Source of the DNA: Candidatus Zambryskibacteria bacterium CG10_big_fil_rev_8_21_14_0_10_42_12
GTDB lineage: Bacteria > Patescibacteriota > Minisyncoccia > Phycocordibacterales > 1-14-0-10-42-12
Direction of reading: 5' to 3'
Length of the DNA: 64,000 nt
Assembly (NCBI GenBank): GCA_002787695.1
Contig: PCXL01000011.1
Location: forward strand, 61,155 to 125,154
Shown here piece after piece: positions 7,582 to 38,784 of this stretch. The notes beneath the pieces are model-generated. The model ran no database searches. It saw nothing but the letters and a program-made list of their open reading frames with translations, and was not told the DNA's origin. Each line of letters begins with the position of its first letter. Positions within the stretch are counted from its first letter, which is position 1. The position numbers were made by a program, and so were the translations under genes.

Positions 7582-8523
7582 ATGCCAGCAAATAATCTTG
7601 GGAAAATTTCAAAAGTGGAGTTTAGGAAAGCGTGGAATCATGAGGCTTCTGATTTTACAAATTGGCTCGCGGAGGAAGAAAACCTACGCCTCTTGAGTGA
7701 TGAAATCGGTATTGATATTAAACTTATTCAAACAGAAGCAAGTGTGGGGAAATTTAATGTTGATATTCTGGCAGAAGAGGAAAACACAGGAAAGAAGATT
7801 GTCATTGAAAATCAACTCGAAGCGACAAACCATGACCATCTTGGGAAAATTATTACCTATGCGTCTGGCTACGAGGCAAATATTGTCATTTGGGTTGTGA
7901 AGGAAGCGAGAGAGGAACATCGACAAGCGGTCGACTGGCTCAATGAGCATACTGATGAGGATCTTGCATTCTTTTTGATACAAATAGAATTGTGGCAGAT
8001 CGGGATGTCTCCGTTTGCACCTAAGTTTGAAATGATTTCTAAGCCAAATGATTGGGCTAAAACAATAAAGCAATCAGTCGGAAGTAATAAAGTAACCGAA
8101 ACAAAGGCGCAGCAATTGCAATTTTGGGAACAGTTTAAGAATTATGCAAAGGACCATAATACAAATTTGAGATTGCAGAAAGCTTATCCACATCACTGGA
8201 TGAACGTCAGTATTGGGAGTAGCCATGCACATATGGCACTTTCTATGAGTTCATTTGATGAGGTGATGCGAACAGAGCTGTATATACCAGATAATAAAGA
8301 AATATATAATTTTTTGTATAAGCAAAGAGATAAGATTGAAAAAGAATTTGGCATGAAGCTCGAGTGGATGGAATTACCAGAAAGAAAAGCGAGTCGTATA
8401 AAAGTAGAAACTTCAGGCCTTATAGATAATACGGACGAATGGGAAACATATTTTGCATGGCTTCAAAAAACCGCCGAAGATTTTCAACGAGTTTTTTCAA
8501 AAATTTTAAAAAAGTATAAATAA
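7582..8523 (+). CDS. PD-(D/E)XK nuclease-fold protein (DUF4268-like)
   Basis: N-terminal FNVDILAEEEN...KKIVIENQLEATNHDHLGKIITYA is typical of NucS/RecB-like nuclease cores. 313 aa, adjacent to the R-M operon. Confidence 0.5.
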   Translation: MPANNLGKISKVEFRKAWNHEASDFTNWLAEEENLRLLSDEIGIDIKLIQTEASVGKFNVDILAEEENTGKKIVIENQLEATNHDHLGKIITYASGYEANIVIWVVKEAREEHRQAVDWLNEHTDEDLAFFLIQIELWQIGMSPFAPKFEMISKPNDWAKTIKQSVGSNKVTETKAQQLQFWEQFKNYAKDHNTNLRLQKAYPHHWMNVSIGSSHAHMALSMSSFDEVMRTELYIPDNKEIYNFLYKQRDKIEKEFGMKLEWMELPERKASRIKVETSGLIDNTDEWETYFAWLQKTAEDFQRVFSKILKKYK

Positions 8524-8527
8524 TCCC

Positions 8528-8671
8528 ATGAACTCATCTAAAACTCTCTATATCATGTGTGGTGTGGGATTTGCGGGGAAATCTACCCTTGCGAAAAAGA
8601 TCGCGGAATATACCGGGGCGACTTTGGTCAGTCAGGATGCTATGTATTTTGAAAAAGAAGAGGTAAGTTGA
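8528..8671 (+). pseudogene. Truncated P-loop kinase/AAA-type ATPase gene fragment (49 codons, Walker A only)
   Basis: MNSSKTLYIMCGVGFAGKSTLAKKIAEYTGATLVSQDAMYFEKEEVS*. It has a Walker A motif GxxGxGKST and terminates after 49 aa, immediately upstream of a GC-rich ORF. Confidence 0.55.
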
Positions 8672-8714
8672 CACATTACGTGTTAAGTAGTATTAAGTAG
8701 ATGGAGGGCAGAGG

Positions 8715-9362
8715 ATGCCGAATCATACGAAGTGGACTGATGACAGGTTGGCTGTGGTTCGAGAACTTGCGAGTGAGCAAGGTCTTACTGCACGTGCAAT
8801 ATTTGCCCTGCAAAGACCAGAGCTTACTGGATTCACCGAGCGTGCGATCCAAAATACGATGGCTCGGTTTGGGTACACGGATCCAAGGCGGAGCGCGCAA
8901 CGAAAGCGTGCGCGTCGCCTAACGAAGGACGAGAAGGAACGACTGATCGAATATCTCGAAGGTGACGGCGCAAAGAAATCGAACAAGCTCGTGGCAAAGA
9001 AGCTCAAAGTGCCGCTTGCTAGTGTCGAGTACTGGCGTAAGCAACTAGGTCAACGGGTCGATCGTAACAAGATTTTCAAATCTGCTGTGTATCGGCGGAG
9101 CGCGTCACGTCGGGCAACTCTGTATGGCCAAGAGATCAGAGAGGCGCGTCGAGCGCAATTTCGGGCGAGGCGCACACGTCTTATCCAACAACTGAGGAAG
9201 CAACCGGACAAGGTTTGTAGGACCTGTAAGGAGCCTTGGTTTGAAGATGAATTCTTCTTTTATCGCGCTTCGACGCGAAGCAAAGACAACAAGCGCTTAT
9301 TGTTTGCGACGTGCAAGGCGTGCGTCAGTGAACAGAGGGCGCGACAACGACGTCATGTCTGA
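8715..9362 (+). CDS. Hypothetical Arg-rich DNA-binding protein (predicted HTH segments plus C-terminal CxxC...CxxC zinc ribbon)
   Basis: 215 aa, about 52% GC against a roughly 42% background. Contains CRTCKEPW...CKACV. It follows the truncated kinase fragment and may be a mobile-element remnant. Confidence 0.45.
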   Translation: MPNHTKWTDDRLAVVRELASEQGLTARAIFALQRPELTGFTERAIQNTMARFGYTDPRRSAQRKRARRLTKDEKERLIEYLEGDGAKKSNKLVAKKLKVPLASVEYWRKQLGQRVDRNKIFKSAVYRRSASRRATLYGQEIREARRAQFRARRTRLIQQLRKQPDKVCRTCKEPWFEDEFFFYRASTRSKDNKRLLFATCKACVSEQRARQRRHV

Positions 9363-10078
9363 AAATGGGGGTCACCTGAAACACGGGTGACCCTTGTTCT
9401 TTTTTGTCTGAGCATTCTATATAATGTACACGCATAGGTAGACTCGCCGGTTTTCAGGCTCTCAGTTTTTGAAAGAAGATCATCTTCTGAACATGACGCA
9501 TTCTTACATGCAGTTTTTGTATTGCAAAAACCCAGAACGGAGCGTTTGGGGAAACAACCCTTAAAAAGGATTGACAAACGCTCCGTTCTGGGTTTTTAAC
9601 GTGCTTTCACCTTCATGAATGCCTTGCGGGCATTTTAATGATTTACAAGCTAAAGTCAAATATATGGCTCTGTTGGGTTTGACACTCAAAAAAATGTATC
9701 TCTTGTCCACAAAATGTGGATAAAGTTCGTTGACTCTTCATGGTCACGTCGTACCATTAGAAGTACGAGAACTGATGGGAAACCAGTACTCGGTCGCCGA
9801 CTATGCAATACAACTGGTTTCCAAAATTTTTCATAGCAGTATAAAACCGACAAACCCGGGGAAGAGGTATGTCGGTTTTTCGTAAAATTTGAAACCAGTT
9901 AGTCGAGAACCTCGACAATCCAAATGACAGAGCACAGAACGTGTTTGTGTTTTGATATTTGGATTGCCATTACGTATATCCCTTACACGGAGTATGCGTA
10001 TCGCAATTCAAAGTTAATGGTCGATATCATTCTCGTACGAGAAATTTATTACAAGAATTAATTAATCAAAGTAAAGAT

Positions 10079-10714
10079 ATGAAGAAAGTAACAGCAATTA
10101 TTGCTACAGTAGCATTTCTCGCAAGTGTGAACGTAGCAAACGCATGGTACTGGGGCGGATGGAATGATGATGACAATACGGTAAACATCAATACTACAAA
10201 TTCTGCAACAGTTTCAAATACAGTAACTACAAAGGCAAACACTGGCTCAAACACAACAGTTGGCGGTAGTGCTGGTAACACAGTATCTGGGTATGGCAAC
10301 AACGGTGGTAATGATGCTACTGGAGGAGATGCAGATGTTGATACTGGTGATGCAACAGCAGTTAGTGATGTTCTCAACAATGTGAACGGAACTGACATTA
10401 ACGTTGTTGGTCCAGACTGTGGTTGTGAAGGTGACAACGAAGTAAACGTAAACGTTAGAAATAGCGCAACGGTTACAAACGATGTTTACACCAAAGCAAA
10501 CACGGGCTACAACACAACAGTTGGCGGCAGTGCAGGTAATGATGTAGACGGCGCTACTCGCCCATGGTGGAGAAGACATCATGTGGTAAATGGTGGCAAC
10601 AACGGTGGTAATGATGCTACTGGAGGAGATGCAGATGTTGATACTGGAGAAGCAGTAAGTGGTACGGTGGTATCTAATTACGTAAACCAGACAATAGTTC
10701 GCGTACGACGATAA
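10079..10714 (+). CDS. Secreted repeat protein (signal peptide; internal repeats TKANTGxNTTVGGSAGN and NGGNDATGGDADVDTG)
   Basis: Start chosen at MKKVTAIIATVAFLASVNVANA (signal peptide). Two near-identical internal repeat blocks. Confidence 0.6.
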   Translation: MKKVTAIIATVAFLASVNVANAWYWGGWNDDDNTVNINTTNSATVSNTVTTKANTGSNTTVGGSAGNTVSGYGNNGGNDATGGDADVDTGDATAVSDVLNNVNGTDINVVGPDCGCEGDNEVNVNVRNSATVTNDVYTKANTGYNTTVGGSAGNDVDGATRPWWRRHHVVNGGNNGGNDATGGDADVDTGEAVSGTVVSNYVNQTIVRVRR

Positions 10715-10736
10715 TCGTACAAGGTGAGGAAGGTTC

Positions 10737-10782
10737 CCTTCCTCCCGCAAAATCCCATATTTTCGGGATTTTGCGGGAGGAA
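10737..10782. terminator. Intercistronic 16-bp perfect inverted repeat (CCTCCCGCAAAATCCC / GGGATTTTGCGGGAGG)
   Basis: Lies between the stop at 10714 and the start at 10794. Confidence 0.5.
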
Positions 10783-10793
10783 CACCGAAAATT

Positions 10794-11285
10794 ATGAAAA
10801 GAAACATCGTGTACATACTCTATATGGGAATATTATGGGCACTCGCACTCCCTGCGCAGGCTTATACAGAGGTGACAAATACGGTGACAACAGAGGCAAA
10901 TACAGGAGGCGGAGGTGGTACGGCGACGGTCAACACAAAGATCTACACAGAGGTAAATGGGGAGGTGATAACTGATATCGATGAGACAAAGACAAGCACA
11001 GACGGTTCTCCTGTAGTGATAGAAAAGGAAATCACATATTCAGATAATTGGAGAGATATACCAACGGACATAGACATGGTTTCAGAAACTCGTACGGAGA
11101 CATCTGTACAGGTTAAAGAGGATTCAGTAATGATGAATGAAGATGATGTCGATGCTATGGAAGAAGTAATGGAGGAGATGACGGAGGAGCGTCTAGAAGA
11201 TGTTGAGGCAAGATCAGAGGCACAGGTAACCGTGTTTGCACGCATTAAAGTATTTTTCAAAACATATGTATTTTGGTGGCTATAA
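10794..11285 (+). CDS. Secreted acidic protein sharing the T(E/K)ANTG motif with neighbours
   Basis: Signal peptide MKRNIVYILYMGILWALALPAQA, then YTEVTNTVTTEANTGGGGG and an acidic C-terminal half. Confidence 0.5.
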   Translation: MKRNIVYILYMGILWALALPAQAYTEVTNTVTTEANTGGGGGTATVNTKIYTEVNGEVITDIDETKTSTDGSPVVIEKEITYSDNWRDIPTDIDMVSETRTETSVQVKEDSVMMNEDDVDAMEEVMEEMTEERLEDVEARSEAQVTVFARIKVFFKTYVFWWL

Positions 11286-13938
11286 AAAAGACCCAATATG
11301 TGAACAAGTGCTAGCGATATGGATCGCGCTTGTGCTTGTATGTGTTCCTGGTGCACCACTGTATGCTGAAGAAGGTGGAGATGCGGAGATAAACACTGGA
11401 GACGCGACTGTTTCGGTTGAAGCAACAAATAGTGCGAACAACAATGTTGTAGACACTGAACCAGAACCAGATCCAGCAGAGGAAGAAGAACAACCTGAAT
11501 CTGTAGAGGAACAAAGTGCTGGCGAGTCAGATGGATCAACAGAAGAAGGTGGGGACGACGAAGGTGCCACATCATCGCCGAGTTTATTGAGTCAGGAACA
11601 GCATGAATTGGCAACGAGTACGGCAACATCGACAGACCCAGTTGCTCAAACGGAGGTCGCTTCAACAACGGGCACGACTACTACACACACAACTATAGAT
11701 ATTGATAATGAAGCACATCTGGAATCAGGTGCCGATTTACTTGCACAGACAGGCGAGAATACTGCGACAAGCACAGGAACGACCACGATAGAAACGGGTG
11801 ATGCATATGCAAACGTAAATATTTTGAATATTGCGAATACAAATATTATTGATTCCTACGGTTTCATGTTGCTCCTTAATAGTTTTATGGGAGATATTGG
11901 AACGATAGATTTTAGAGATTTTATAGCACCATTACTTTTTAATAATAATCAGCAGTCATCTTGTGGTACCGGAGTTTGTGGAGGAGATGATACGCTCGAT
12001 ATTTCTGGAACCAGTACAACAACCATAAACAATGCCGTTATCGTGCGTTCGCAGACTGGTGGCAACTCTGCTTCTGGTGGTGATGCGTCAATACAAACAG
12101 GAGATGCATATGCGGGTGCTAATGTGGTCAATATCGCGAATACTAATATTGTTGATTCGAACTATATGTTGCTTGCCCTCAACAATTTTGGAGATTGGTC
12201 GGGGGATTTGGTGTTGCCTGGAAAAGATTTCTTTATCAATATGCTCTATGGCATGGGTACGACTGGCGCAGGAACAGTGACGGTGAATACAGAAAACAAT
12301 GCGAACATTGAAAACGGAGTTTCTACAGTTGCCGATACAGGAGGTAACACTGCAACAAGTACAGAGAGTGGAGCCAATATTGAAACAGGAAATGCTACAG
12401 CTCAAACAAACGTAACGAATGTAGTAAACCAAAATTTCTTTAATCAGGATTCACTATTTATTATCTTTAAAGTGCATGGCACATGGTCGGGAAATGTATT
12501 TGGACTACCGCCAGGGCTTTCATGGCGCGAGACACCGCATGGTATTGAAGTATTTGGAAGTGGACAGACGCAGACAGGTTCATCTGGTACTGGCTTGAAT
12601 AATCTCTCGATAAACCAACAGAACAATGCCGACATTAAAAACAACGTAGAACTGTATGCTCTTACGGGAGAAAATGAAGCAGGGGGAGGTAATACATCTA
12701 TTCAAACAGGTAATGCGTACGCCGGTGCCAATGTGGTTAATATGGCAAACACTAATATCATTGGCCGCAACTGGATACTTGCCATCGTAAACATCTTTGG
12801 TGACTGGAATGGAAACTTGGCCTTTGGACGACCTGACCTCTGGATAGGTGGCAAAATAGAGCCCGTAAACCCAATGAGTCCTATTGGACCCGGTTCTGAA
12901 CTTCGATATAAAGTTGTTGTGGTAAATAGAGGAGATTCTGATGCGACAGATGTTGTGCTTAAACATCGTTTTGATGTGCCATTTGTCTCATTTGTAGACA
13001 CAAGTAATCCTCAGAAGGTGAATGAGAGAGATACACTATGGAATATTGGCACGATCGCTGTTGGCGAACATGTTGAAATAACATTGCCTGCAGTGGTAAA
13101 AAGTGCACGTGAAATTGTAAGTGGTACAACTCGTATTGAGAGCATGTTTGAGGTTACGTCGTTTGAAACGGATGCTGACAGTGGTGACAACAAAGAGCAT
13201 CTTTCTGTTGTTATAGATAACTATGATGCAAACCTATCTCCAGTAAATCTAAATCCAAACATAGAAGAACCGGTCGTGCCGGTATTACCAGACTTTAGTG
13301 TAGTGAAGACGAGCAGTACTCATACAACAGTGGCAAGCAGTACAGTGGAATATACCGTGACGCTTAAAAATAATGGTGGGTTTGCGCCTGATGCGGTAGT
13401 GATCGATGCACTCAAAGATGAGAACGGAAATATTGTTTTTGAGCAGGTATGGCAACTCGGTCCCGTCTATGAGAATGAGGAAATTACCATTACATACGGA
13501 ACTATCTTTAGTGGTGATATGGAACCGGGATTATACACAAACACTGCAGAAGTCATTGCAAAAGTATCTACCGATAGCGAAGATGTTATCCGATCTTCCG
13601 CCGATGCGATCGTCGCACTGGAAGCAGGTGTAGTGGTAGAACCGCCAGTGATTCCTGCACCAGTGGTACAGCCTGTCAGACGACAGATTGTGGCGATGAA
13701 TGATACATACGGTATAACCCTGATCCCTCCGATGTGTAGCCTCTACAGTTGCTTAATAGATACGGATGATGAGGCTTCTACTCAATTTGGGTTCGGTAAC
13801 ATGTTTCTCGCATCAGCCTTTGGTAGCGGATTCCCGCCAAGTGACGATAGATCACTCAAACTCTTTATTTTGGCAGCAGTCATGTATGCGGTTGGCAGAC
13901 CAAGAGAGAATCGTCATGGCATGTCACTGTTCTTCTAA
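11266..13938 (+). CDS. Large cell-surface protein: signal peptide, Thr/Asn-rich beta-helix-like repeats (TGxNxAxxGxAxIQTGxAYAGANVVNxANTNI), two DUF11/CARDB-like domains, C-terminal hydrophobic anchor
   Basis: The repeat recurs at least four times. The DUF11-like segments are YKVVVVNRGDSDATDVVLKHRFDVP and YTVTLKNNGGFAPDAVVIDAL. The start is inferred at MYFGGY, overlapping the previous gene. Confidence 0.6.
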   Translation: MYFGGYKKDPICEQVLAIWIALVLVCVPGAPLYAEEGGDAEINTGDATVSVEATNSANNNVVDTEPEPDPAEEEEQPESVEEQSAGESDGSTEEGGDDEGATSSPSLLSQEQHELATSTATSTDPVAQTEVASTTGTTTTHTTIDIDNEAHLESGADLLAQTGENTATSTGTTTIETGDAYANVNILNIANTNIIDSYGFMLLLNSFMGDIGTIDFRDFIAPLLFNNNQQSSCGTGVCGGDDTLDISGTSTTTINNAVIVRSQTGGNSASGGDASIQTGDAYAGANVVNIANTNIVDSNYMLLALNNFGDWSGDLVLPGKDFFINMLYGMGTTGAGTVTVNTENNANIENGVSTVADTGGNTATSTESGANIETGNATAQTNVTNVVNQNFFNQDSLFIIFKVHGTWSGNVFGLPPGLSWRETPHGIEVFGSGQTQTGSSGTGLNNLSINQQNNADIKNNVELYALTGENEAGGGNTSIQTGNAYAGANVVNMANTNIIGRNWILAIVNIFGDWNGNLAFGRPDLWIGGKIEPVNPMSPIGPGSELRYKVVVVNRGDSDATDVVLKHRFDVPFVSFVDTSNPQKVNERDTLWNIGTIAVGEHVEITLPAVVKSAREIVSGTTRIESMFEVTSFETDADSGDNKEHLSVVIDNYDANLSPVNLNPNIEEPVVPVLPDFSVVKTSSTHTTVASSTVEYTVTLKNNGGFAPDAVVIDALKDENGNIVFEQVWQLGPVYENEEITITYGTIFSGDMEPGLYTNTAEVIAKVSTDSEDVIRSSADAIVALEAGVVVEPPVIPAPVVQPVRRQIVAMNDTYGITLIPPMCSLYSCLIDTDDEASTQFGFGNMFLASAFGSGFPPSDDRSLKLFILAAVMYAVGRPRENRHGMSLFF

Positions 13939-28844: not shown

Positions 28845-30134
28845 ATGAACCGTTTTCAGATCATTCTCATCGCAGCCTTCGCCTTTTTTGCTGTGTTTGG
28901 TGTATTTCTGTTTGCAACGTTCCGAGGTGCAGGTGAAAACCAACAGATCTCTGTCACGATGTGGGGTACTCTGCCACAGGTTGATTTCTATAGCTGGTAT
29001 AGCAGTACACCACTTAGTAAAAATAATAATATTACGGTCACATATGTGTATAAGAATCCGGATACATTTGACCAAGATTTTGTTGAAGCGCTTGCAGACG
29101 GAAGAGGTCCAGATATCATCTTTTTGCCTCATGAGAAAATTTTAGAACACGGCAACAGGATCTATCCGATTCCGTACGATACCCTTTCAGAACGCAATTT
29201 CAGAGATTTGTTCGTTGAAGGGACAGAGATTTTTCTTGGACCAAATGGATCTTACGCACTTCCGATCATCATTGATCCTTTAGTTATGTATTGGAATCGA
29301 GATATATTCCGAAATGCAGGCATTGCACAAGTACCACAATATTGGGATGAATTTCCATCACTTGCGCTGAGCTTGGTAGAACGTGATTCACTCAAAAATA
29401 TTACGCAAAGCGCTGTTGCTCTTGGAGAATACGGCAATGTATATCGGGCACGAGATATTATCTCCGTATTACTCATGCAAGCCGGTACGCCTATTACGCA
29501 ACAATCTTCATTGGGTCTCCAGTCCGTGTTGGGTAGTACGTTTAATTTTGCAACTATGCCTGCAGATGCGGCACTGACGTTTTATACACAGTTTGCAAAT
29601 CCGGCAAAAGATATTTACTCATGGAATCGCTCATTTAATAATTCATTAAACATTTTTGCATCAGGCGATCTGGGAATCCTGTTTGCACGTTCGTCAGATT
29701 TGTTTGCAATTCAATCACGTAATCCAAATTTAAACTTTGACGTAGCTCTTCTTCCTCAACCGCGTGAAGCGACAAATAAAATGACATATGGATACATGGA
29801 AGGTTTGGCGCTTGTAAAGCAGTCGCAAAAACTCTCTGGCGCATATCGTGTGATACAAGAGCTTACTAGTAAAGAGTCGGTGACTGCACTATCAAACATA
29901 CTCAAACTGCCTCCTGTTCGCCGAGATGTGCTGGTGAGCCGTCCGTCGGATGCATATCTCTCTGTGTTCTACGAGAGTGCTTTAATCTCTCAGGCGTGGC
30001 TTTCGCCACATCCTGCTACCACTGATAGTATTTTTAGAGATATGGTGGAATCTATTACAAGTGGGCGGTTGCGAATGGGTGAAGCGATTCGTGCTGCGAG
30101 TGATGCACTTAATCGTGCGCTCGGACGCAACTAA
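28845..30134 (+). CDS. Extracellular solute-binding protein (ABC transporter SBP family 1-like), N-terminal TM anchor
   Basis: DIIFLPHEKI and LPIIIDPLVMYWNRDIF are typical of sugar-type SBPs. Confidence 0.65.
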   Translation: MNRFQIILIAAFAFFAVFGVFLFATFRGAGENQQISVTMWGTLPQVDFYSWYSSTPLSKNNNITVTYVYKNPDTFDQDFVEALADGRGPDIIFLPHEKILEHGNRIYPIPYDTLSERNFRDLFVEGTEIFLGPNGSYALPIIIDPLVMYWNRDIFRNAGIAQVPQYWDEFPSLALSLVERDSLKNITQSAVALGEYGNVYRARDIISVLLMQAGTPITQQSSLGLQSVLGSTFNFATMPADAALTFYTQFANPAKDIYSWNRSFNNSLNIFASGDLGILFARSSDLFAIQSRNPNLNFDVALLPQPREATNKMTYGYMEGLALVKQSQKLSGAYRVIQELTSKESVTALSNILKLPPVRRDVLVSRPSDAYLSVFYESALISQAWLSPHPATTDSIFRDMVESITSGRLRMGEAIRAASDALNRALGRN

Positions 30135-30138
30135 CAAT

Positions 30139-30519
30139 ATGAAATTTCTAAACATAGCAGTTACAACCCTTATCACCGCGTCTCCTCTTTTATTGTATGC
30201 TCAAGAACAAGACGCAATGAGAGGAGAGATAACCGATGAGCGCTGTGAAGGATTTAGCTGTGATTATGGTGATTTAATAAATCTCATACAGGATATTTTA
30301 TTGTTTATGTTGAAGCTTTCAATACCGATCGCAGCTATCGCCCTTGCGGTTGCTGGGTTCAAGATTTTGACAGCACGAGATTCAGTCACAGAACGTAGTG
30401 AAGCTAAAACCATGATGCTTAAAATAGTAGGTGGCGTTATGATTATGTTGGCAGCAGGACTGATTGTGAATACGATTGTTGGTGCGTTATTGCAAGGCGA
30501 CTTTAATTTTTTGGATTAA
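30139..30519 (+). CDS. Small 2-TM pilin-like protein (TrbC/VirB2-like), paralog 1 of 6
   Basis: Signal peptide MKFLNIAVTTLITASPLLLYAQ, then two TM helices with a charged loop. Confidence 0.5.
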   Translation: MKFLNIAVTTLITASPLLLYAQEQDAMRGEITDERCEGFSCDYGDLINLIQDILLFMLKLSIPIAAIALAVAGFKILTARDSVTERSEAKTMMLKIVGGVMIMLAAGLIVNTIVGALLQGDFNFLD

Positions 30520-30523
30520 CATT

Positions 30524-30973
30524 ATGAAATATATCTTCATTACCGTGATACAGGCTGTTTTCATAGGAATGTTTATGATATCCAGTGTAAGTTTTGCGGA
30601 AACAGGTATTGAACCGGGCACCCCTAGTGGAGGTGGTACAGGTATTGAACCGGGCACCCCAGGTGGCAGTCCTGCGTCCCATCAAATCAACTTTCAAAAC
30701 CCGCTCTCGCTTGGAGAAAATGCAACCATCTCAACATTTATTGAGTCAATCCTTAGAAATATTGTTGTTCCGATAGGAGCAGTCGTATCTGTGTTCTTTA
30801 TTATCTATGCAGGCTTCCTGTTTGTGACAGCGCGCGGAAGCGAAGACAAAGTGACAAAAGCAAAAACTGCACTCCTCAATGCGGTTATTGGTACAGTTAT
30901 TATTTTAGGATCATGGGTGATTGCCCAGGCAATTTCAGGCACTGTCTCACAACTAGGAGGCCCAACGTTATAA
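30524..30973 (+). CDS. Small 2-TM pilin-like protein, paralog 2 (Gly/Pro-rich GIEPGTP repeat insert)
   Basis: Signal peptide, duplicated TGIEPGTPxGG, then TM-loop-TM. Confidence 0.5.
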   Translation: MKYIFITVIQAVFIGMFMISSVSFAETGIEPGTPSGGGTGIEPGTPGGSPASHQINFQNPLSLGENATISTFIESILRNIVVPIGAVVSVFFIIYAGFLFVTARGSEDKVTKAKTALLNAVIGTVIILGSWVIAQAISGTVSQLGGPTL

Positions 30974-30980
30974 ACGTATT

Positions 30981-31319
30981 ATGAAAAAAATCGTCTTACT
31001 TTCTACACTTTTTGCACCTCACCTGCTATTTGCCCAACTAATTACATCAGACTTTAAAAGTTTTGTTACGAGCCTGGTGAATGCGTTTTTACCGACACTG
31101 TTGGGTATCATTGCTCTTATTTTGTTTTTGTATTTCGTCTGGCGTGTAGCACAGTTTATTTTGCATGCAGACAGTAAAGAAACACGTTCATCTGCGAGTC
31201 GAGTGTTTCTCTGGGGTATTCTCGCTCTGTTTGTTGCAGCATCACTTGTTGCCATAATTTCATTTTTACTGGGAGAGTTTGGTTTTGGCGTACCGGTTAT
31301 TCCTAAATTGCCACAATAA
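30981..31319 (+). CDS. Small 2-TM pilin-like protein, paralog 3
   Basis: Signal peptide MKKIVLLSTLFAPHLLFAQ and a VFLWGILALFVAASL core. Confidence 0.5.
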   Translation: MKKIVLLSTLFAPHLLFAQLITSDFKSFVTSLVNAFLPTLLGIIALILFLYFVWRVAQFILHADSKETRSSASRVFLWGILALFVAASLVAIISFLLGEFGFGVPVIPKLPQ

Positions 31320-31378
31320 CAGTGGGTTGTTGATAAATAGTAGTCATTTGAGCATTAAACATATTACAATTAAAAATT

Positions 31379-31753
31379 ATGAAAAAAAGTATATATATAA
31401 GTTTGCTAGCATTATCACCACTCATTGTATTGGCACAACCATCTAGTGGTTATTTAACACAATCACAAGGTTTATTGGATGGAGTTTTAAATACGATTAC
31501 ATTACTTATTGGTATTGCAATTGTGCTCGCGTTTCTATTTTTTGTGTGGGGTATTGCAGAATTTATCCGTAAGGCAGATGATGCTGGCAATAGAGCAGAA
31601 GGTCGCCAGAGAATGATCTGGGGTATTGTTGCGCTCGCTGTTCTTGCAACTGTCTGGGGTATTGTGAGATGGCTACAGATTGAACTTGGTCTTTCTGCAA
31701 ACGAAGCTGCGCCGGGAATATTCCAATTCTTCCAGCTTTGGAGTGGTAACTAA
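31379..31753 (+). CDS. Small 2-TM pilin-like protein, paralog 4
   Basis: Signal peptide, then AGNRAEGRQRMIWGIVALAVLATVWGIV. Confidence 0.55.
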   Translation: MKKSIYISLLALSPLIVLAQPSSGYLTQSQGLLDGVLNTITLLIGIAIVLAFLFFVWGIAEFIRKADDAGNRAEGRQRMIWGIVALAVLATVWGIVRWLQIELGLSANEAAPGIFQFFQLWSGN

Positions 31754-31838
31754 TCCACATTGTATCCTTGCCACTTCCGTAGTAGCATTGTCTCATAGGT
31801 GCTAAACGCCCTTAATTATAAAGTTTTATTTACTCAAA

Positions 31839-32189
31839 ATGAAAAAAGCAGTTATTACTTCTTTGATGCTTGGCGCAATGCCGTTTATTGCAAGTGCCCA
31901 GCTTGAAAACATTGAAGACATTGTTGTATCAATTGGTGATATTATCGACCTTTTGGTACCTATTGTGTTTGCACTCGCTATCCTCTATTTCTTCTGGGGA
32001 CTTGCACAATTTATCTTGGCTTCAGGAGACGAAACCGCACGTGCAGAAGGCCGCCAGAAGATGATCTGGGGTATTGTAGCAATTGCAGTAATGGCATCTA
32101 TCTGGGGACTTGTGTTCTTCTTGCAAGATGCTGTTGGTGTAAGTCGAGTAGACGCACCGTCTATCGATGTTATTCCGACTGTCAACTAA
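31839..32189 (+). CDS. Small 2-TM pilin-like protein, paralog 5
   Basis: Signal peptide, then ARAEGRQKMIWGIVAIAVMASIWGLV, almost the same motif as paralog 4. Confidence 0.55.
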   Translation: MKKAVITSLMLGAMPFIASAQLENIEDIVVSIGDIIDLLVPIVFALAILYFFWGLAQFILASGDETARAEGRQKMIWGIVAIAVMASIWGLVFFLQDAVGVSRVDAPSIDVIPTVN

Positions 32190-32209
32190 CGAGAGTGCTA
32201 TAAGATTCC

Positions 32210-32485
32210 ATGGATAGCTTCGGAACATTGCTTGGTAAGATAAACGAGTTCATTATCAATCCGATTATCTACGTCCTCTTTGCGGTTGCATTTATCTTCT
32301 TCTTTATCGGACTTATACAGGTTGTCAAAGGATCAAAAGAAGGTGGAGATGATTTTGCAAAAGGGAAGAGAAACATGCTCTATGGACTTATCGGATTTGT
32401 CGTGATGTTTGGAGTTTACGGCATTATCAACCTGCTCTTAGGAACATTTGGAATCGATACACCGGAATATCTGCAAGGGTTGTAG
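32210..32485 (+). CDS. Small 2-TM membrane protein related to the pilin-like array (no signal peptide)
   Basis: FAKGKRNMLYGLIGFVVMFGVYGI motif analogous to the paralogs. Confidence 0.45.
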   Translation: MDSFGTLLGKINEFIINPIIYVLFAVAFIFFFIGLIQVVKGSKEGGDDFAKGKRNMLYGLIGFVVMFGVYGIINLLLGTFGIDTPEYLQGL

Positions 32486-32507
32486 AAAAATAAGATTCAG
32501 ATAACGA

Positions 32508-32552
32508 AAGACCGCCTGACGGATCCCTTGCGGGACCGTCAGGCGGTTTTGG
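32508..32552. terminator. Bidirectional compound hairpin terminator
   Basis: ACCGCCTGACGG...CCGTCAGGCGGT plus TTTT, between the pilin array and the convergent minus-strand gene. Confidence 0.6.
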
Positions 32553-32566
32553 TTGTGGAGGCGACA

Positions 32567-34873
32567 TCAGTCTACCTCCGGAAACAGAACCCATAGTCGA
32601 TTGACATATGGCTCTGCATTTTCGGTCATGATCCGGATGGTCCTGAAATTACTTCGCAGGACAGTTCCGGACTGACCGACTCTAAACGGTTCTCCGCCGT
32701 CTAGAGAGATGAGAAGTCGATCATCAACCATCATCAGTCGCTCGAGATTTGTGTATTTCGAGCGCGCTATGATGCTGTCGACTTGCGCCTTACCGTTCTC
32801 CATACCGAGCCGTTCGAGCTCGGAGGAGACATAGGAGCGGAGCTCTTCGACAACATCTATCGTTTCTCCCCAGACGCCATTGCCTGGGGCGGCAAACATG
32901 ATTCCTCTTTTTCTTTGGAATCCCCCTGCTCGAGCTTTTGCCTCGAGCTTGTCGATTGTTCGTTGCCAAGGAGAAAAACTCCTCCCGGCAGCAACATAGA
33001 CGGCATGTGCCCAGCGTACGTGCTCCTCGATGTCATGCTCATACGGGTCAATGCCCATATTGCGAGCAATTCCACCATGGAACCCGGCGTTGACTTGGCA
33101 TAAGCCTATGTCTTCATTGTCCGAACCGCGCAAGATCGTGCCGTCGTCATTGTAGTGACGTAAGCCCGACTCTTCGCGACAAATGGCGAGCATCCACCGG
33201 ACTGCTTCCGGACCTTCGCTGTCGAAGACTTGTTGGATAATCGCCTCTGCTTGAGCGGCAGGTATGAGATTGTGCTGCTCAAGGGCTTGTTCAGTTTGTT
33301 TCGGAGCATCGTCAGATCCTCCAAACCAGTCCAACCAACCTCCTTTATTCTCAGAGCGCTCGAGCTGCTGCTTGTACTGCAGCCAGCGGATACCTTCCTC
33401 CGAGGTTAACGGTTTTCCTGGAACTCCAATTCTCGAAGAACCAGGATTGTTGGCAACGCACGCATAGACGTGCACCATCCACCAATCTCCGTCTTCACCT
33501 GTAGGAGACGTATCTCCCTCAGGGCGACAGTACAGGGCAACCCCCTCTTTTGTGAAGAGGATATTGTCCTCAAAATCCTGCCTCATCTGCTTTGCCGTAT
33601 GGATTACTCCAGGAAGCGAAGTGATAAAGGAGGGAGTGAGAATGGTGAGTACCGTTCCCACAGTGGCTAGTGATGCCAGTGTGGTAAACCATGAACCTAC
33701 AACGCGAGAACCGGTTATCCGGTGGTACACTCCGTTAAAGGTCAGAATAGCGATACCGACCGCCATTATGGTGTGAAGTGTCGAGTGGTCTTTGAGCGGT
33801 AAGTGTGCAAGCATTCCGCTCATGAGACCAACGACCATCAGAAATCCGAGAACGGCCCAATACTTCTGCCGTGCGGGTTTGAAACCCATGAGGCGAAGCA
33901 TGAGTGCTCCTATTCCGAAGAGGAGCACGAGGGGGATTGCATACATAAGCAATTGCCCCAAAATAGATTCCGCTCCACTACCACTCACAACGAGTCCTAG
34001 TGCCAATTTATACCCAAAGTATACGATAAGCGCAGGACCCACGATGAAGATGATGATGGAGAAAGCGAAAACGGTGCATGCCAAGTACCACAGTGCTCGG
34101 GCAACTCTGTCTGCAGGTGCTTCTTCCTGCATCACAAACGGCACTGGGCCGTTTGGCGTGAACACGGGAACCATTCTCCCAGAACCGGCCATTCGTCCGA
34201 GTGACGCTAATCCGGGTCGTCGAGCGATTAAGCTCTCTGCGAACCGGGTGAATTTTTGCCAGCGAGTGGCTTGGTAGAGGAACTCGAGCTGGGACGTAAC
34301 CCACGCATCGTATTCTTGTACCGTTTCACCCTCTTTCATCTTCCGAAAAATACGCCGGAAGATGTTTACGAAAAGCTTTACCGGATCTCCAGCAGAAATC
34401 CAGGTAATGGTTCCATCGGGATTGCGTGTTGCCACGTCAAACCCATTTTTGGCCGCACGCCACGCCTGGCCGATCGCGTTCTCGCGATCGTCGGATGGGT
34501 TGCGGTGGAAATAGTCTTGGGCACGTGTCCAGCCGCTCTTGAGTTGATCGGCCAGGATCATCTTGGCTTCCTTGGCGTATTCGCCGCGGAAGGTTTTGAT
34601 GACGATATTGGCGATGACTTCGGCGGCTTTGTCAGGGTCGCCCCCGAAGCCGCCAACCACCTTTTTCCCCACGCTGATGATGATGTCGTACAGGACTTCA
34701 TCTTTCACCGCAGAGAACATGCCTTTTGCTGCGGATTTGATATTCCGCAGTATGTTTCGTAACATTTCTTCTCTCCTTGGCGCGAGATGCGCCGATACTC
34801 TAGATTGTGATAGACCTAAGTCCTCATATATTATAACAAAAAATGGTGAATTGTCAATGTAATTATTTGACAA
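32567..34873 (-). CDS. Polytopic membrane protein with C-terminal SLT-type lytic transglycosylase domain (VirB1-like activity on a VirB6-like multi-TM body?)
   Basis: Central block of five or more TM helices. C-terminal AICREESGLRHYN...DIGLCQVN...Y gives the SLT catalytic Glu-Ser, GLxQ and Tyr motifs. GC about 52-55%. Confidence 0.65.
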   Translation of the reverse strand: MSNNYIDNSPFFVIIYEDLGLSQSRVSAHLAPRREEMLRNILRNIKSAAKGMFSAVKDEVLYDIIISVGKKVVGGFGGDPDKAAEVIANIVIKTFRGEYAKEAKMILADQLKSGWTRAQDYFHRNPSDDRENAIGQAWRAAKNGFDVATRNPDGTITWISAGDPVKLFVNIFRRIFRKMKEGETVQEYDAWVTSQLEFLYQATRWQKFTRFAESLIARRPGLASLGRMAGSGRMVPVFTPNGPVPFVMQEEAPADRVARALWYLACTVFAFSIIIFIVGPALIVYFGYKLALGLVVSGSGAESILGQLLMYAIPLVLLFGIGALMLRLMGFKPARQKYWAVLGFLMVVGLMSGMLAHLPLKDHSTLHTIMAVGIAILTFNGVYHRITGSRVVGSWFTTLASLATVGTVLTILTPSFITSLPGVIHTAKQMRQDFEDNILFTKEGVALYCRPEGDTSPTGEDGDWWMVHVYACVANNPGSSRIGVPGKPLTSEEGIRWLQYKQQLERSENKGGWLDWFGGSDDAPKQTEQALEQHNLIPAAQAEAIIQQVFDSEGPEAVRWMLAICREESGLRHYNDDGTILRGSDNEDIGLCQVNAGFHGGIARNMGIDPYEHDIEEHVRWAHAVYVAAGRSFSPWQRTIDKLEAKARAGGFQRKRGIMFAAPGNGVWGETIDVVEELRSYVSSELERLGMENGKAQVDSIIARSKYTNLERLMMVDDRLLISLDGGEPFRVGQSGTVLRSNFRTIRIMTENAEPYVNRLWVLFPEVD

Positions 34874-34970
34874 ATAACTTAAATTATGATAATAAAGTGC
34901 TAGAACGGCTCTCTAAAGCCATTCGACCTTTTACATAGAGAATGTGGGTGAGGCCCACAGGGAGAAAATG

Positions 34971-36341
34971 ATGAGGAAACTTATCGTATTGGCGAGCGTG
35001 CTCGCCATGATGTGCACGATGCTGGCTTCGGGCCAGACGTTGTTCGAGGGTGTCATTCAGACGAACGACAACCGCGAGGAGGTCGTCAAAATCACGGAGC
35101 AACCAGCGGTGCAGCCGCAGAAGCAAATCCAGGCTGTTGCGCCACAGGCGCAGCAGATCGAAGAGACTCAGGTGGCGGCACCTGTCGATCAGTCGGCGGT
35201 GACTCCTGAACCGACTGCGCCGGCTCAGGATGTCGCGGTTCAGACAGGCATACCTGACAACCCGACAAGCGAGTGGTTGGTCGAGTACATGCTCGGTGGT
35301 CTCTACTGGATAGTCAGAGCCGCATCAGATCTGACATTCTGGCAGATTTTGCTCATTATCCTGGCTGTATTGGCGGTAGCGGGGTTAGGGTATGGATGGT
35401 CGCAATTTCCGCACCCAGTAGCAGATCTGAAATCAAGAATGCGATCGGTATGGCGCAAGTTGCGGGTAGTGTTCGGTGATCATAAGTATCACCGTACCGA
35501 AACTTCCGGCGGACCGTATCGTAAACTGACGCTACTCGAGGATGTATTACGCCAAGGTTCAAAGTCAGGACCTCAACTGGTCTTGTTCTTGGGACTTTAC
35601 GCTGGTGTAGCGTCGGCGGCAGTGCTGACCAACGAGCCTGTGCTTCACCCACAAAACATCGAGCCGGTTGCCGTTGTTGAGAACACGACGTCGACTGTCA
35701 CGATCAGTTGCACGGCGAACATGTCGTGCAACAAGGTGAAGTCTGCGCGACTGGGTACGTCTGACCACGTGTCTGTAACTGCAACATCCAAAGACAAACT
35801 GGTGTTGCAGGTGAAAACTGGTCCTCGTTCGCACATTCAGGAGGACCGTATCGTTCTCCACTACGGTGATGGGGTGGAAAGGCGAATCGCCGGATTCTTC
35901 ACGCTGCCACGTCAGGCAGCTGAGACGATCGAATTCATGATGCGGTTGCATCCTGGTGAGCAGGAGGCTGGAGGTGCACACAGTGCAATCACTGCGGTCC
36001 TCCAAGCTGAGATCGACCGGATCGACCAGCACAAAGTTGACCCGCTCCGTGAGGAGGTAGAGAAACTCAAAGCTCGTGTCCAAGAAAACGAGCAACGAGT
36101 CAGGACAAATACCGGTCTCATGGCCGAGGTGCGCGACGAAGTCGTTGCTCTTCGTGACAGGGTCGGCGAGACAGAAGAGCGACTCGGCAAGCTCGAGCAC
36201 ACCGAGCGCTCACAGGTACTCTACGCCTGTGCCGGTTTCGGCACACGGCAAGAAAATGGCGCCGCACTTGCTGCGGTTGCCAAACGAGAAGGGAAGACAC
36301 CGAAGCAAGTCTGCGAAGACATGCAAACGGATCCTTTCTGA
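34971..36341 (+). CDS. Hypothetical exported/membrane protein with Gln/Pro-rich linker and C-terminal coiled coil (GC-rich)
   Basis: Signal-like N-terminus MMRKLIVLASVLAMMCTML, an internal TM segment ILLIILAVLAVAGLGYGW, and a C-terminal heptad-rich EEVEKLKARVQENEQRV... About 58% GC. Confidence 0.5.
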   Translation: MRKLIVLASVLAMMCTMLASGQTLFEGVIQTNDNREEVVKITEQPAVQPQKQIQAVAPQAQQIEETQVAAPVDQSAVTPEPTAPAQDVAVQTGIPDNPTSEWLVEYMLGGLYWIVRAASDLTFWQILLIILAVLAVAGLGYGWSQFPHPVADLKSRMRSVWRKLRVVFGDHKYHRTETSGGPYRKLTLLEDVLRQGSKSGPQLVLFLGLYAGVASAAVLTNEPVLHPQNIEPVAVVENTTSTVTISCTANMSCNKVKSARLGTSDHVSVTATSKDKLVLQVKTGPRSHIQEDRIVLHYGDGVERRIAGFFTLPRQAAETIEFMMRLHPGEQEAGGAHSAITAVLQAEIDRIDQHKVDPLREEVEKLKARVQENEQRVRTNTGLMAEVRDEVVALRDRVGETEERLGKLEHTERSQVLYACAGFGTRQENGAALAAVAKREGKTPKQVCEDMQTDPF

Positions 36342-36496
36342 TCTGATCAGTTTCCAAATCCAGACCGAGTAGTACCACGTTGTACTGCTCGGCCTGTTTT
36401 AATTTCGAAAAATGTTTAAAATTAGCCATAAAAATGCTCATGGTATTATTAATAAGGAACACAGCTCTGCAATATATATAGGTATAGGAGGCTCAC

Positions 36497-37156
36497 ATGC
36501 GGAAAGGGGTAGTACTGGTTATCTTGTTGTCTCTTGTCGCAACCATTGTTTTTGGATGGTTGTGGTGGAAGACGACCAAGGTCACGCAGGAAGTCGACAG
36601 AGAGATACGTAGGTTGAGAGAGGATATACAACAATCGGAACAGGAATCACGTATAGAAGCTTTTGTCTCGTCGCAGACACAGGCTTTGACGGAAGCACAC
36701 ACGACCGATATGCGTGGACTGCGACAAGAGTTGGCTCAGAATCGACAAGAACTAGAGCGGATAGTGAAGGAGGTGGAAACTCAGAAGGCACTGATTGCCG
36801 AGCGCACTACTCGACAGGAAGTCCAAAAGGAAATAGACGCAAGAGCGAGTATCTTGGCAGATCGTCTCAAGCAGCTCGCTATACGTGTGCTCGATCTCAG
36901 TCGTCGTGTGCAAGAAAATCTGCAACTTGCTCTTGAAGCCAAAGGTGCTTTGGCGGAATTGCAAGACCATGTGCGACGTATAAAACAGGTGACCGATGAC
37001 AACACGCATGAGATACAGGAATTAAATCAAATGCATACATACCGGATTCGGACTGCCTGTGTGCTTGGATACAGCAATGATCCGGATCTTGTGCTGCGTG
37101 CGGAGCGTGTTCGCCTGTCACCTGCGGAGTTTTGTGAACAATTTTTGTCGCAATAG
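36497..37156 (+). CDS. Hypothetical membrane-anchored coiled-coil protein (GC-rich)
   Basis: N-terminal TM VVLVILLSLVATIVFGWLWW followed by about 150 aa of coiled-coil-like sequence. Confidence 0.5.
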   Translation: MRKGVVLVILLSLVATIVFGWLWWKTTKVTQEVDREIRRLREDIQQSEQESRIEAFVSSQTQALTEAHTTDMRGLRQELAQNRQELERIVKEVETQKALIAERTTRQEVQKEIDARASILADRLKQLAIRVLDLSRRVQENLQLALEAKGALAELQDHVRRIKQVTDDNTHEIQELNQMHTYRIRTACVLGYSNDPDLVLRAERVRLSPAEFCEQFLSQ

Positions 37157-37339
37157 CGACTTTCGTCGAGGAGAAGCGCTCCTCGACGAGTTTTTAATGT
37201 TTGTCAAAAAAGCAAAAATAAGCATACAATAGGGACTGCTTGTCCGGGTGATGGAATCCCAAGTAGCAAAGCGAAGCTTACTACGGGACGGGTTGGTAAC
37301 ATAGGAAAAATTACTGAGTGTTGTTTAATAATTTGGAAT

Positions 37340-37421
37340 GCCCGGGTGGCGGAACTGGTATACGCGCACGACTTAAAATCGTGTTCCGAAAGGGGTGCGG
37401 GTTCGATTCCCGCCCCGGGCA
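37340..37421 (+). tRNA. tRNA-Leu (anticodon TAA), type II
   Basis: GCCCGGGTGGCGGAACTGGTATACGCGCACGACTTAAAATCGTGTTCCGAAAGGGGTGCGGGTTCGATTCCCGCCCCGGGCA. Confidence 0.85.
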
Positions 37422-37610
37422 CAAGAATAAAAGAACTGGGCACGAATGTGTCTCGTGATTTTTATTCTCGCCTCGGGCGGGAATCGAAAGCCGGAGCGCG
37501 CGAAGCCGACCGTAGGTCGTGTGCGAGGCGGGGTCGCGACCTCCGTCGTGAAGATTTACCCAGCACTTATAACATAAGTGCTGGGTTTATCGAAACAGGA
37601 GAGTTGTGAC

Positions 37611-37628
37611 CGATTCCCGCCCCGGGCA
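37611..37628 (+). repeat. 18-nt direct repeat of the tRNA-Leu(TAA) 3' end (CGATTCCCGCCCCGGGCA)
   Basis: Identical to 37404-37421. The 190-bp segment between them contains hairpins and a partial inverted copy of the T-arm (GCGGGAATCGAA). Confidence 0.8.
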
Positions 37629-37677
37629 TCATATAAAAAGGAAATGCCCTCGCGGATGCGAGGGGCTTTATGGGGGA

Positions 37678-38076: not shown

Positions 38077-38784
38077 GTGCTAATGTTTTTTATATTAATA
38101 TATGGTATACGCTATATGCCTTACAATATTAAATACTACAAAACATATCAGTGGAGTAAAAAGTTGGCATATATAATTGGACTTATTGCAACAGATGGAA
38201 GTCTGTCTGTTGACGAGCGTCATATTGATTTTACATCTAAAGATTTAGAGCTTATCAAAATTTTTAAAGATTGTCTGAAACTTTCAAATAAAATAGGTAT
38301 TAAGAAGAGCGGCACAAACAGAGTTTGTTTTTGTATACAATTTGGTAACAAGAATTTTTACAACTTTCTAAATTCTATAGGGATTTATAAGGCTAAATCC
38401 AAAACTATAAAAAGGATTGATATACCTAATAAATATTTTCCACATTTTTTACGTGGCTGTTTGGATGGCGATGGTAATATTGATTTATACAAACATGCAC
38501 AAAGTCAATATATGCAAATTAGATTTAGATTTGCATCTGCGAGTAAACCATTTCTAGAATGGATATTACAGGTATTAAAAATAAAATATAGTATTGAAGG
38601 AGGTTGGATTTATAGTCAAAAAAATAAATCAACCCATGTTTTAGTCTTTGGTAAGACAGACACTTTGAAAATTGGAAAAATCATGTATCATGACCATGCG
38701 AACTTATGCTTACAAAGGAAGTTTGCAAAATATAAACAATGGGCAAGTGGCGGAATTGGTATACGCGCTAGTCTTAGGAACTAG
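38077..38784 (+). CDS. LAGLIDADG homing endonuclease (double-motif), AT-rich; 3' end overlaps tRNA-Leu(TAG) by about 44 nt
   Basis: Two LAGLIDADG motifs, LAYIIGLIATDGSLS and FLRGCLDGDGNID. About 28% GC. It lies between tRNA-Lys and tRNA-Leu(TAG). Confidence 0.8.
   Translation: MLMFFILIYGIRYMPYNIKYYKTYQWSKKLAYIIGLIATDGSLSVDERHIDFTSKDLELIKIFKDCLKLSNKIGIKKSGTNRVCFCIQFGNKNFYNFLNSIGIYKAKSKTIKRIDIPNKYFPHFLRGCLDGDGNIDLYKHAQSQYMQIRFRFASASKPFLEWILQVLKIKYSIEGGWIYSQKNKSTHVLVFGKTDTLKIGKIMYHDHANLCLQRKFAKYKQWASGGIGIRASLRN

Follow-up and report, generated by a model that had tools for sequence, protein, structure and literature searches.

The closest described counterparts of the locus reported here are the wall hydrolases of type IV secretion systems (T4SS), namely VirB1 of Agrobacterium and PrgK, TraG (pIP501) and TcpG of Gram-positive conjugation, in which a glycosidase module of the lysozyme superfamily is encoded beside T4SS-type pilin genes and opens the wall locally for an envelope-spanning structure. 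The Patescibacteria (Candidate Phyla Radiation, CPR) account for a large part of the diversity of bacteria, and type-IV-secretion-like genes are reportedly essential in the one patescibacterial species tested. Hundreds of Patescibacteria genomes contain pilin arrays, yet a VirB1 is not recognisable in most of the genomes that have VirB2-like pilins, and other glycosidases have been suggested as substitutes (PMC12102498); host cells have been put forward as a target of patescibacterial wall-degrading enzymes (PMC11665869). The subject of this analysis is the segment at positions 32567-37156 of a 64-kb stretch (the window) of contig PCXL01000011.1 from Candidatus Zambryskibacteria bacterium CG10_big_fil_rev_8_21_14_0_10_42_12, an organism placed in the Paceibacteria/Parcubacteria part of the CPR. 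The segment carries three genes, designated X, Y and Z, of which X encodes a polytopic membrane protein with a predicted lysozyme-like exo-domain, and it lies downstream of an array of genes for VirB2/TrbC-like pilins.

PrgK and TraG are membrane-anchored with the catalytic part outside, as is predicted for X, and local opening of the wall is the job also proposed for X. X differs from the T4SS hydrolases in having no match to the Pfam SLT or CHAP/NlpC models, in having about five transmembrane (TM) helices and a predicted cytoplasmic domain of 230 aa instead of one anchor, in possessing an Asp aligned by hhalign to D52 of hen (C-type) lysozyme, in adjoining pilin genes and not virB4, and in that the catalytic module is optional in its family. 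As a genomic site, the segment resembles the replacement-type flexible islands (O-antigen, capsule and pilin-modification loci), with which it shares a fixed site between conserved flanks, envelope content, atypical composition, and alleles that are far more divergent than the genome and uncorrelated with it. Unlike those islands, it is GC-richer, not GC-poorer, than the genome, its composition is held across hosts with values of 0.27 to 0.60 for GC content at third codon positions (GC3), its genes are for membrane proteins and not for sugar pathways, and exchange at the site is something that we infer. On balance, we lean towards regarding the segment as this genome's allele of a hypervariable envelope cassette at a fixed slot downstream of the pilin array. 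The locus is a new architecture within a known type of system, with compositional and evolutionary behaviour that is unusual and unexplained.

A conserved slot with its own composition

The window consists of ordinary chromosomal DNA and encodes gyrA, ftsZ, ftsA, topA, infB, rbfA, clpB, relA/spoT, hisS and ten tRNAs. When one genome per species was scanned with the solute-binding protein (SBP) encoded next to the array, 80 Paceibacteria loci were obtained, or 81 with L001, a copy of the window locus; several of the GTDB records carry doubtful taxon labels. The gene order gyrA, methyltransferase, SBP, array of five to seven VirB2-like pilin genes is found at all 81 loci. Past the array, sequence is readable at 63 loci, where the first gene almost always encodes a convergent membrane protein. 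In 20 of these loci this gene clusters with X (cluster c1), with products of 243-768 aa, and a lysozyme-like hidden Markov model (HMM) matches at E <0.01 in 14 loci besides the window and L082, the genome behind the X relative P0003. The genes rbfA and infB come next wherever the contig is long enough (25 loci). Among the closer relatives of X, P0003, P0006, P0007, P0008 and P0011 all occupy the slot, and P0004 comes after a Band_7 gene. The link to a pilin array, drawn earlier in a first-pass annotation of the window, is borne out in that all X relatives with readable context converge on the last gene of a PF18895/PF04956 array.

Two further genes recur at these loci. A membrane-anchored family-1 SBP gene (28845-30134 in the window) directly precedes the pilin array in 81 of 81 loci, with a gap of 4 bp in the window, and may share operon and function with the pilins. 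The second gene past the array, in 46 of the 63 readable loci, encodes an SPFH/Band_7-like membrane protein of 345-470 aa with a milder GC excess (GC3 +0.09); neither the window nor L082 has this gene, and in both its place is taken by Y/Z-type genes. That X arose as a fusion of a lysozyme-like gene with this SPFH/Band_7 neighbour of its relatives was considered and rejected, the N-terminal half of X having no similarity to it.

The comparison with L082 shows how sharply divergence is confined to the slot. In local BLAST alignments, the flanking proteins of L082 are 89% (gyrA), 81% (SBP), 82% (infB) and 80% (rbfA) identical to those of the window; its X is 30% identical over the full length, and the match of its Y is restricted to the last 70-130 residues, at 35-40% identity. 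Nucleotide similarity between the two genomes ends at 32490 and restarts at 37194, the borders of the segment. When loci are compared pair by pair, the identity of the X-type proteins does not correlate with that of SBP (Spearman -0.05), whereas gyrA and SBP identities rise together (0.79), and there are striking pairs in which SBP is 85% and gyrA 95% identical while the adjoining SPFH-type gene of the cassette is 24% identical.

The GC excess on which the first-pass annotation rested persists in window statistics, the segment having a GC content of 0.517 against 0.421 for the remainder and ranking highest among all 4590-bp windows of the 64 kb (mean 0.427, standard deviation [sd] 0.030), with steps in composition at approximately 32500 and 37200. 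The three open reading frames (ORFs) that it described are present (32567-34873 on the minus strand, 34944-36341 and 36497-37156 on the plus strand), and its range of 52-58% GC fits X (0.526) and Y (0.559), with Z (0.488) falling below it. Against 46 background genes (GC 0.416, GC3 0.356, sd 0.064), the GC3 of X is 0.562 (z +3.2); the excess of X is therefore mainly synonymous, being largest at third codon positions, and amino-acid composition was rejected as its cause on the same ground. Y has a GC content of 0.65 at second codon positions (GC2) and a GC3 that is not comparable; part of its excess is compositional and reflects a protein with abundant Ala, Pro, Thr, Gly and Arg. Strand or replication orientation was likewise rejected as a cause of the high GC, since the GC of rbfA and infB, which share that strand, is normal. 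A chimeric assembly is excluded, because an independent European Nucleotide Archive assembly (ERZ27293400) contains the same 21 kb with X, Y and Z proteins that are 100% identical, and synteny is kept in relatives.

The same excess recurs in other hosts. In 19 of 20 genomes, the housekeeping flanks are poorer in GC than the X-type genes, the mean difference being 0.10 in GC and 0.24 in GC3. In the 19 genomes other than that of the window, X-type GC3 is 0.59 (sd 0.10) against a host value of 0.35 (p 2e-5) and does not follow host GC3 over the range given above (regression slope -0.31). GC3 of the pilin genes equals that of the host (difference -0.009). A check for the island in relatives, as called for by the first-pass annotation, thus finds divergent homologues at the slot of L082 and of many Paceibacteria, GC-rich there too: the segment is a conserved hypervariable slot with its own composition and not a one-off island.

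A single recent horizontal acquisition, by which the segment would be a classical island peculiar to this genome, is consistent with its place at the top of all windows of its size, with the sharp borders at 32500 and about 37200, and with the absence of any homologue of X or Y of more than 50% identity among 1.84 billion representative proteins. It is nevertheless hardly credible, given that L082, with flanks 80-89% identical, has a 30%-identical X and Y/Z-type genes in place, that the slot shows the same GC excess in 19 of 20 genomes, and that there are neither mobility genes nor bracketing repeats: no integrase or transposase domain was found in the segment by Pfam, PHROGs or NCBIfam, and no direct repeat brackets 32500-37200. 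Because the high GC spans hosts and the divergence is uncoupled from the flanks, repeated replacement or recombination at the slot is indicated instead of a single recent insertion, and the cassette alleles would have been exchanged many times. Alleles may have been replaced time and again out of a common pool; biased gene conversion at a hot spot of recombination, or selection acting on GC3, are further possible causes.

Equally improbable is that the segment is a remnant of a prophage or integrative element at a tRNA, with a lysis-type cassette formed by a membrane protein with a muramidase and Rz-like coiled-coil proteins. The atypical GC and GC3, the adjacent tRNA-Leu with its 3' end repeated 207 bp downstream, fold matches of the X domain to phage tail-lysozyme domains, and faint PHROG matches of Y and Z to 'Rz-like spanin' and 'holin' (E 0.14-0.23) are what such an origin might leave behind, but the PHROG matches are not significant, and the tRNA repeat is on the far side of the tRNA, so that the cassette is not bracketed. 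Integrase, capsid, tail and conjugation genes are absent. X has no match in 50,697 phage records, in 72,556 plasmids (tblastn) or in an IMG/VR scan, whereas dozens of genomes have homologous genes at this slot, between housekeeping genes. Spanins, moreover, serve to disrupt an outer membrane, and a cell of the single-membrane (monoderm) type would not need them. A pattern scan of Joint Genome Institute metagenomes also gave no relatives.

Gene X and its lysozyme-like domain

Residues of X are numbered here by the 768-codon ORF. The promoter of X (34857-34830) sits within the 5' end of this ORF, downstream of its TTG start, and the first ATG past it, at 34765, has AAGGAG just upstream; a product of 732 aa beginning at this ATG is therefore most likely. 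The 768-aa protein of the first-pass annotation thus exists as an ORF, with a probable product that is shorter, and the NCBI model has 717 aa. Searches of Pfam, NCBIfam, PHROGs and PADLOC with X, Y and Z gave no significant match, only coiled-coil noise for Y and Z, and word-indexed homologue searches with X and Y returned self matches only.

The layout of X (Table 1) begins with a mostly helical N-domain, with 34 Lys and Arg residues before the first TM helix and AlphaFold confidence (predicted local distance difference test, pLDDT) of 70-93 over model residues 60-160; among the local loci, its HMM matches just X and the L082 orthologue. In the membrane region, hydropathy gives four strong peaks and one weaker helix, with a positively charged loop after the second TM helix, and the AlphaFold model places six helices between residues 217 and 399 at low confidence. 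The long cytoplasmic N-terminus and the five or more TM helices that had been proposed are predicted on this basis. The two-Cys module that follows the membrane region is matched by its HMM in X (E 1e-31) and in L082 (E 1e-28) and has low pLDDT. A linker of about 100 residues separates the last TM helix from the lysozyme-like domain. The latter is not C-terminal, as had been supposed: a beta-rich domain comes after it (pLDDT 71-95), for which Foldseek found only a weak cupin-like match (E 0.09, probability 0.92).

The catalytic signature reported at first sight is present in X as C-R-E-E568-S and D588-I-G-L-C-Q-V-N, with the SLT-type motifs E568-S569 and the G590-L-C-Q593-V-N595 hairpin. An exhaustive phmmer search of the 1.84 billion representative proteins found 110 relatives of X, about 100 of which are small secreted proteins matching residues 555-638. 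In an alignment of 93 homologues, Glu568, Gly590, Gln593 and Trp636 are invariant, and Ser569, Asp588 and Asn595 are at least 90% conserved. Scanned singly against Pfam, these 93 homologues match SLT (22), SLT_3 (22), C-type lysozyme (Lys, 7) and the Rpf-type transglycosylase-like family (5), the SLT matches being sub-threshold to weak (best E 3.3e-6). A profile of the family finds C-type lysozymes as the best solved relatives in the PDB (E from 5e-4), and hhalign pairs E568 and D588 with E35 and D52 of hen lysozyme (E 7.6e-5, probability 62%). Modelling of the C-terminal 243 aa with AlphaFold gave a pLDDT of 89.8 overall and 93-98 in the lysozyme-like domain; among the predicted viral structures of BFVD, Foldseek gave one clear match to this model (E 6.8e-5, root-mean-square deviation 2.3 Å over 103 columns), followed by a series of proteins labelled 'phage tail lysozyme', 'SLT domain' or 'lysozyme-like' with probabilities of 0.9-1.0.

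On these profiles and models, residues 537-650 are assigned to the lysozyme-like superfamily and not to SLT family 1. The features that unite this superfamily (SLT/GH23, C-type/GH22, Rpf-type 'Transglycosylas', SLT_3 and phage tail lysozyme), namely Glu-Ser after the first helix, the G-L-x-Q-x-N hairpin and a distal Trp, are shared by X, its model has the helical lobe and small beta-hairpin, and its profile matches are weak but recurrent; the domain fits no single family, and X itself stays below every threshold. It does not reach the Pfam SLT gathering score of 21.3 bits, and the isolated domain has no match to Pfam SLT at E up to 0.01. The SLT assignment of the first-pass annotation therefore fails in profile searches at the level of the family, and stands at that of the superfamily. 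Conservation of Asp588 suggests hydrolase chemistry, as opposed to that of a lytic transglycosylase.

Proposed role of the cassette

X would be an inner-membrane protein with its N-terminus inside and its catalytic domain tethered at the outer face of the membrane. The general-acid Glu568 and Asp588, kept in a D-x-G-L-x-Q-x-N hairpin like that of C-type lysozyme, point to cleavage of the N-acetylmuramic acid-N-acetylglucosamine (MurNAc-GlcNAc) backbone of peptidoglycan, possibly by hydrolysis. X may thereby open the wall locally and let a pilin-based structure pass, a VirB1-like role filled by a protein that is not VirB1. The X family consists of unannotated, membrane-anchored lysozyme-like proteins strictly linked to pilin arrays, and offers a concrete candidate for the VirB1-like cutting that has gone undetected in most Patescibacteria.

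In the main rival reading, the same domain would instead be turned outwards, as a weapon or feeding tool that attacks the peptidoglycan of a host cell at the contact site of a presumed epibiont, with the hypervariability reflecting an arms race over host specificity. The extreme divergence uncoupled from the genome, the swapping of exo-domains among family members and the approximately 100 small secreted homologues of the domain would all accord with this, and a published proposal has patescibacterial lytic transglycosylases damaging the envelopes of hosts (PMC11665869). It seems unlikely for X, in which about five TM helices tether the domain to the membrane of the producer with a linker of only about 100 residues, making its reach to a host wall doubtful; moreover, no secretion or cleavage signal was identified in X, and the epibiont lifestyle is presumed and not read from the window.

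Comparison within the closer X family bears on what the rest of the protein may do. The N-domain, TM body and Cys module are constant, and the exo-domains vary: some members have both the lysozyme-like and the beta domain, some only the latter, and some have unrelated Cys-rich domains. Since the family can dispense with the lysozyme-like module, its constant function may reside in the membrane body. The body could then be a very diverged 'extended VirB6-like' platform, that is, an assembly or channel subunit for the pilins with exo-domains as interchangeable add-ons, in the manner of F-plasmid TraG. Strict adjacency to VirB2-like arrays in every member with readable context, the polytopic body with a large exo-domain, and the constancy of that body next to an optional lysozyme-like module argue for such a platform, and homologues of VirB6 are hard to detect in several classes of Patescibacteria (PMC12102498). 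We nonetheless consider it improbable: no TrbL/VirB6 Pfam match was found in X or ten relatives, the body has no PDB sequence match, its TM model is of low confidence and has no fold match, and no VirB4 gene lies within the 64-kb window.

The VirB6/TrbL-like body of the first-pass annotation was accordingly not recovered. TrbL (PF04610) has no match in X or in the ten relatives, which include P0003-P0008 and P0035, a profile of the X-family body gave only noise against PDB sequences, and no fold match was obtained for the TM body, the TM part of the model being of low confidence. The likeness of X to VirB6/TrbL and to extended VirB6 (F-plasmid TraG) is architectural only, in being polytopic, in lying beside VirB2-type pilins and in its large exposed C-terminal extension, and no similarity of sequence or fold was detected. 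Nor, within the window, is X encoded beside a virB4-containing cluster, as a VirB1-type component of a T4SS would be; it adjoins VirB2-like pilins only. What stands of the original interpretation is an envelope enzyme tied to a pilin array; the SLT and VirB6 families and the nature of the island do not.

A number of results weigh against our preferred reading of the segment as a cassette allele with a wall-opening enzyme. The Pfam SLT model (PF01464) and all lysozyme models have no match to X at E up to 1, NCBIfam and a PDB sequence search found none (0 hits in PDB for the C-terminal half), and Foldseek of the C-terminal model against the PDB gave nothing below E 0.09; for the full-length model the same search was uninformative, the model being multi-domain with a predicted template modelling score of 0.33. 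Other exo-domains are found at the same locus (P0006-P0009, P0011, P0024 and P0035), and with a lysozyme-like module that not all members possess, the family cannot have wall cutting as its constant function. No VirB4, VirB6 or VirD4 domain was found among the large ORFs of the window, so that the T4SS-like apparatus first envisaged is not borne out and a secretion machine is not demonstrated, and filament formation by the pilin-like proteins is itself putative. The divergence figures, finally, rest on identities from local alignments, and the ORF calls in the relatives are mechanical.

A broader proposal, tentative and rather doubtful, is that an exchangeable cassette with a GC3 of about 0.6 in any host swaps exo-domains on a conserved polytopic body, supplying VirB1-like cutting in many lineages and acting as a modular specificity-and-penetration unit of the CPR pilin-array system. 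The slot, with its foreign-looking, roughly constant GC and its relatedness-blind divergence, is an unusual pattern that could mark determinants of host specificity, and its evolution is open to study in existing metagenomes.

Genes Y and Z, borders and other features of the window

As the first-pass annotation had it, the neighbours of X are membrane or envelope genes with coiled-coil character, the heptad-like segments lying at residues 350-399 of Y and 66-182 of Z. For Y, a start at ATG 34968 is most likely, preceded by GGGAGA, and adds a signal-peptide-like N-terminus that is missing from the database model. The predicted layout of Y is a signal peptide or TM helix, a low-complexity segment of Ala, Pro, Gln and Thr, two TM helices, an exposed domain, a coiled coil (a short heptad-like region at about residues 350-400, with coiled-coil-type Pfam matches) and a C-terminal two-Cys knob (nt 36204-36338). 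In Z, a stalk of about 150 residues, poor in Pro and Gly and with heptad-like segments, leads to a two-Cys knob of about 45 residues (nt 37016-37153; motif HMM E 6.8e-23). The knob motif, x-x-A-C-x(n)-L-x-A-x-A-K/E-R-x-x-x-T/S-P-x-E/Q-x-C, is common to Y, Z and two L082 genes at the same position (HMM E 1e-23 to 1e-28), and the knob is probably disulfide-bonded. A profile of the motif found nothing in a database of 5.8 billion proteins and, among 88 local loci, only the window, its duplicate L001 and L082. Y and Z would thus be membrane-anchored proteins with an extracytoplasmic helical stalk and a common knob, serving as lineage-specific accessories of the cassette.

The borders named in the first-pass annotation, a bidirectional terminator and tRNA-Leu(TAA), are real, with a further terminator before the tRNA on the right (Table 1). 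The left hairpin is an inverted repeat with a 15-bp stem and U-rich tails on either strand, with folding energies of -39.9 kcal/mol (plus strand, z -7.3) and -34.3 kcal/mol (minus strand, z -5.9); no shuffled sequence was as stable. The pilin array to its left lies directly 3' of the SBP gene and has host-normal GC. In Rfam searches, tRNAs alone were matched, with nothing else in the window or near the right border.

Table 1. Coordinates of the segment, the domains of X and adjoining features in the window
Feature	Position	Strand	Description
Six small VirB2/TrbC-like pilin genes	30139-32485	+	T4SS_pilin PF18895 / TrbC PF04956; Pfam E 2.4e-9 to 1.6e-5
Two-way intrinsic terminator hairpin	32508-32550	both	Between convergent last pilin gene and 3' end of X; left slot border
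Gene X	32567-34765 (ORF extends to TTG 34873)	-	Polytopic membrane protein with predicted lysozyme-like exo-domain; probably 732 aa
X aa 651-768, beta-rich alpha/beta C-terminal domain	32570-32923	-	118 aa; common to P0003, P0004, P0005, P0007
X aa 537-650, lysozyme-like domain	32924-33265	-	Glu568 at nt 33170-33172; Asp588 at nt 33110-33112 in D-I-G-L-C-Q-V-N
X aa 437-530, two-Cys module	33284-33565	-	Predicted extracytoplasmic; CRP...W..VY.C..NPG...G.PG..LT..E...WL.W; conserved in X family
X aa 266-436, membrane region	33566-34078	-	About 5 TM helices; predicted N-in, C-out topology
X aa 37-265, N-domain	34079-34765	-	Predicted cytoplasmic, mostly helical; common to P0003, P0007, P0011, P0035 (alignment)
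Sigma-70-type consensus promoter of X	34830-34857	-	TTGACA, 16-nt spacer, extended TG (TGnTATAAT); 12/12 hexamer matches
Gene Y	34968-36341 (ORF from 34944)	+	Probably 457 aa; divergent from X
Gene Z	36497-37156	+	219 aa; predicted N-terminal TM anchor aa 4-22, helical stalk, two-Cys knob
Terminator 3' of Z	37162-37190	+	12-bp stem, then TTTTT; -20.4 kcal/mol, z -3.5; right slot border
Promoter-like site of tRNA-Leu(taa)	37201-37230	+	
tRNA-Leu(taa)	37340-37422	+	ARAGORN; Rfam 61.6 bits; 97% identical to L082; conserved flank

Several other features of the window were noted. The last 18 nt of tRNA-Leu(taa), CGATTCCCGCCCCGGGCA (from 37404), recur as a direct copy at 37611-37628, 207 bp downstream, and as an inverted copy at 37470-37488, and the GC-rich 190 bp between the repeats have no Rfam match; the region 37404-37640 looks like an att-type scar or small insertion at the 3' end of the tRNA that does not bracket the cassette. 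An ORF of the LAGLIDADG homing-endonuclease type (PF14528, GC 0.30) at 38077-38784 lies in the space separating tRNA-Lys from tRNA-Leu(tag) and overlaps the start of the latter. The equivalent inter-tRNA space of L082 carries an ORF of 158 aa with an HNH motif; thus, this second, small slot is also variable.

A GC-rich stretch (approximately 0.53) at 22100-22520, after a peptidyl-tRNA hydrolase-like ORF, contains no convincing ORF and has no Pfam or Rfam match (E up to 1), and could represent either an undescribed RNA or a small gene that evolves rapidly. The region 4000-9400 includes a block of low GC (0.30-0.35) in which the ORFs 4349-5671 and 5665-7343 have no Pfam match, followed by a GC-rich (0.53) ORF for an Arg-rich product of 215 aa (8715-9362), also without matches; in appearance it comes closer to a classical acquired island than the segment with X, Y and Z does. 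A secreted repeat-rich protein of 251 aa with N/G/T/D-rich repeats, together with a 900-aa protein with DUF11 repeats, both at 9959-13938, suggests a further cluster of surface proteins.

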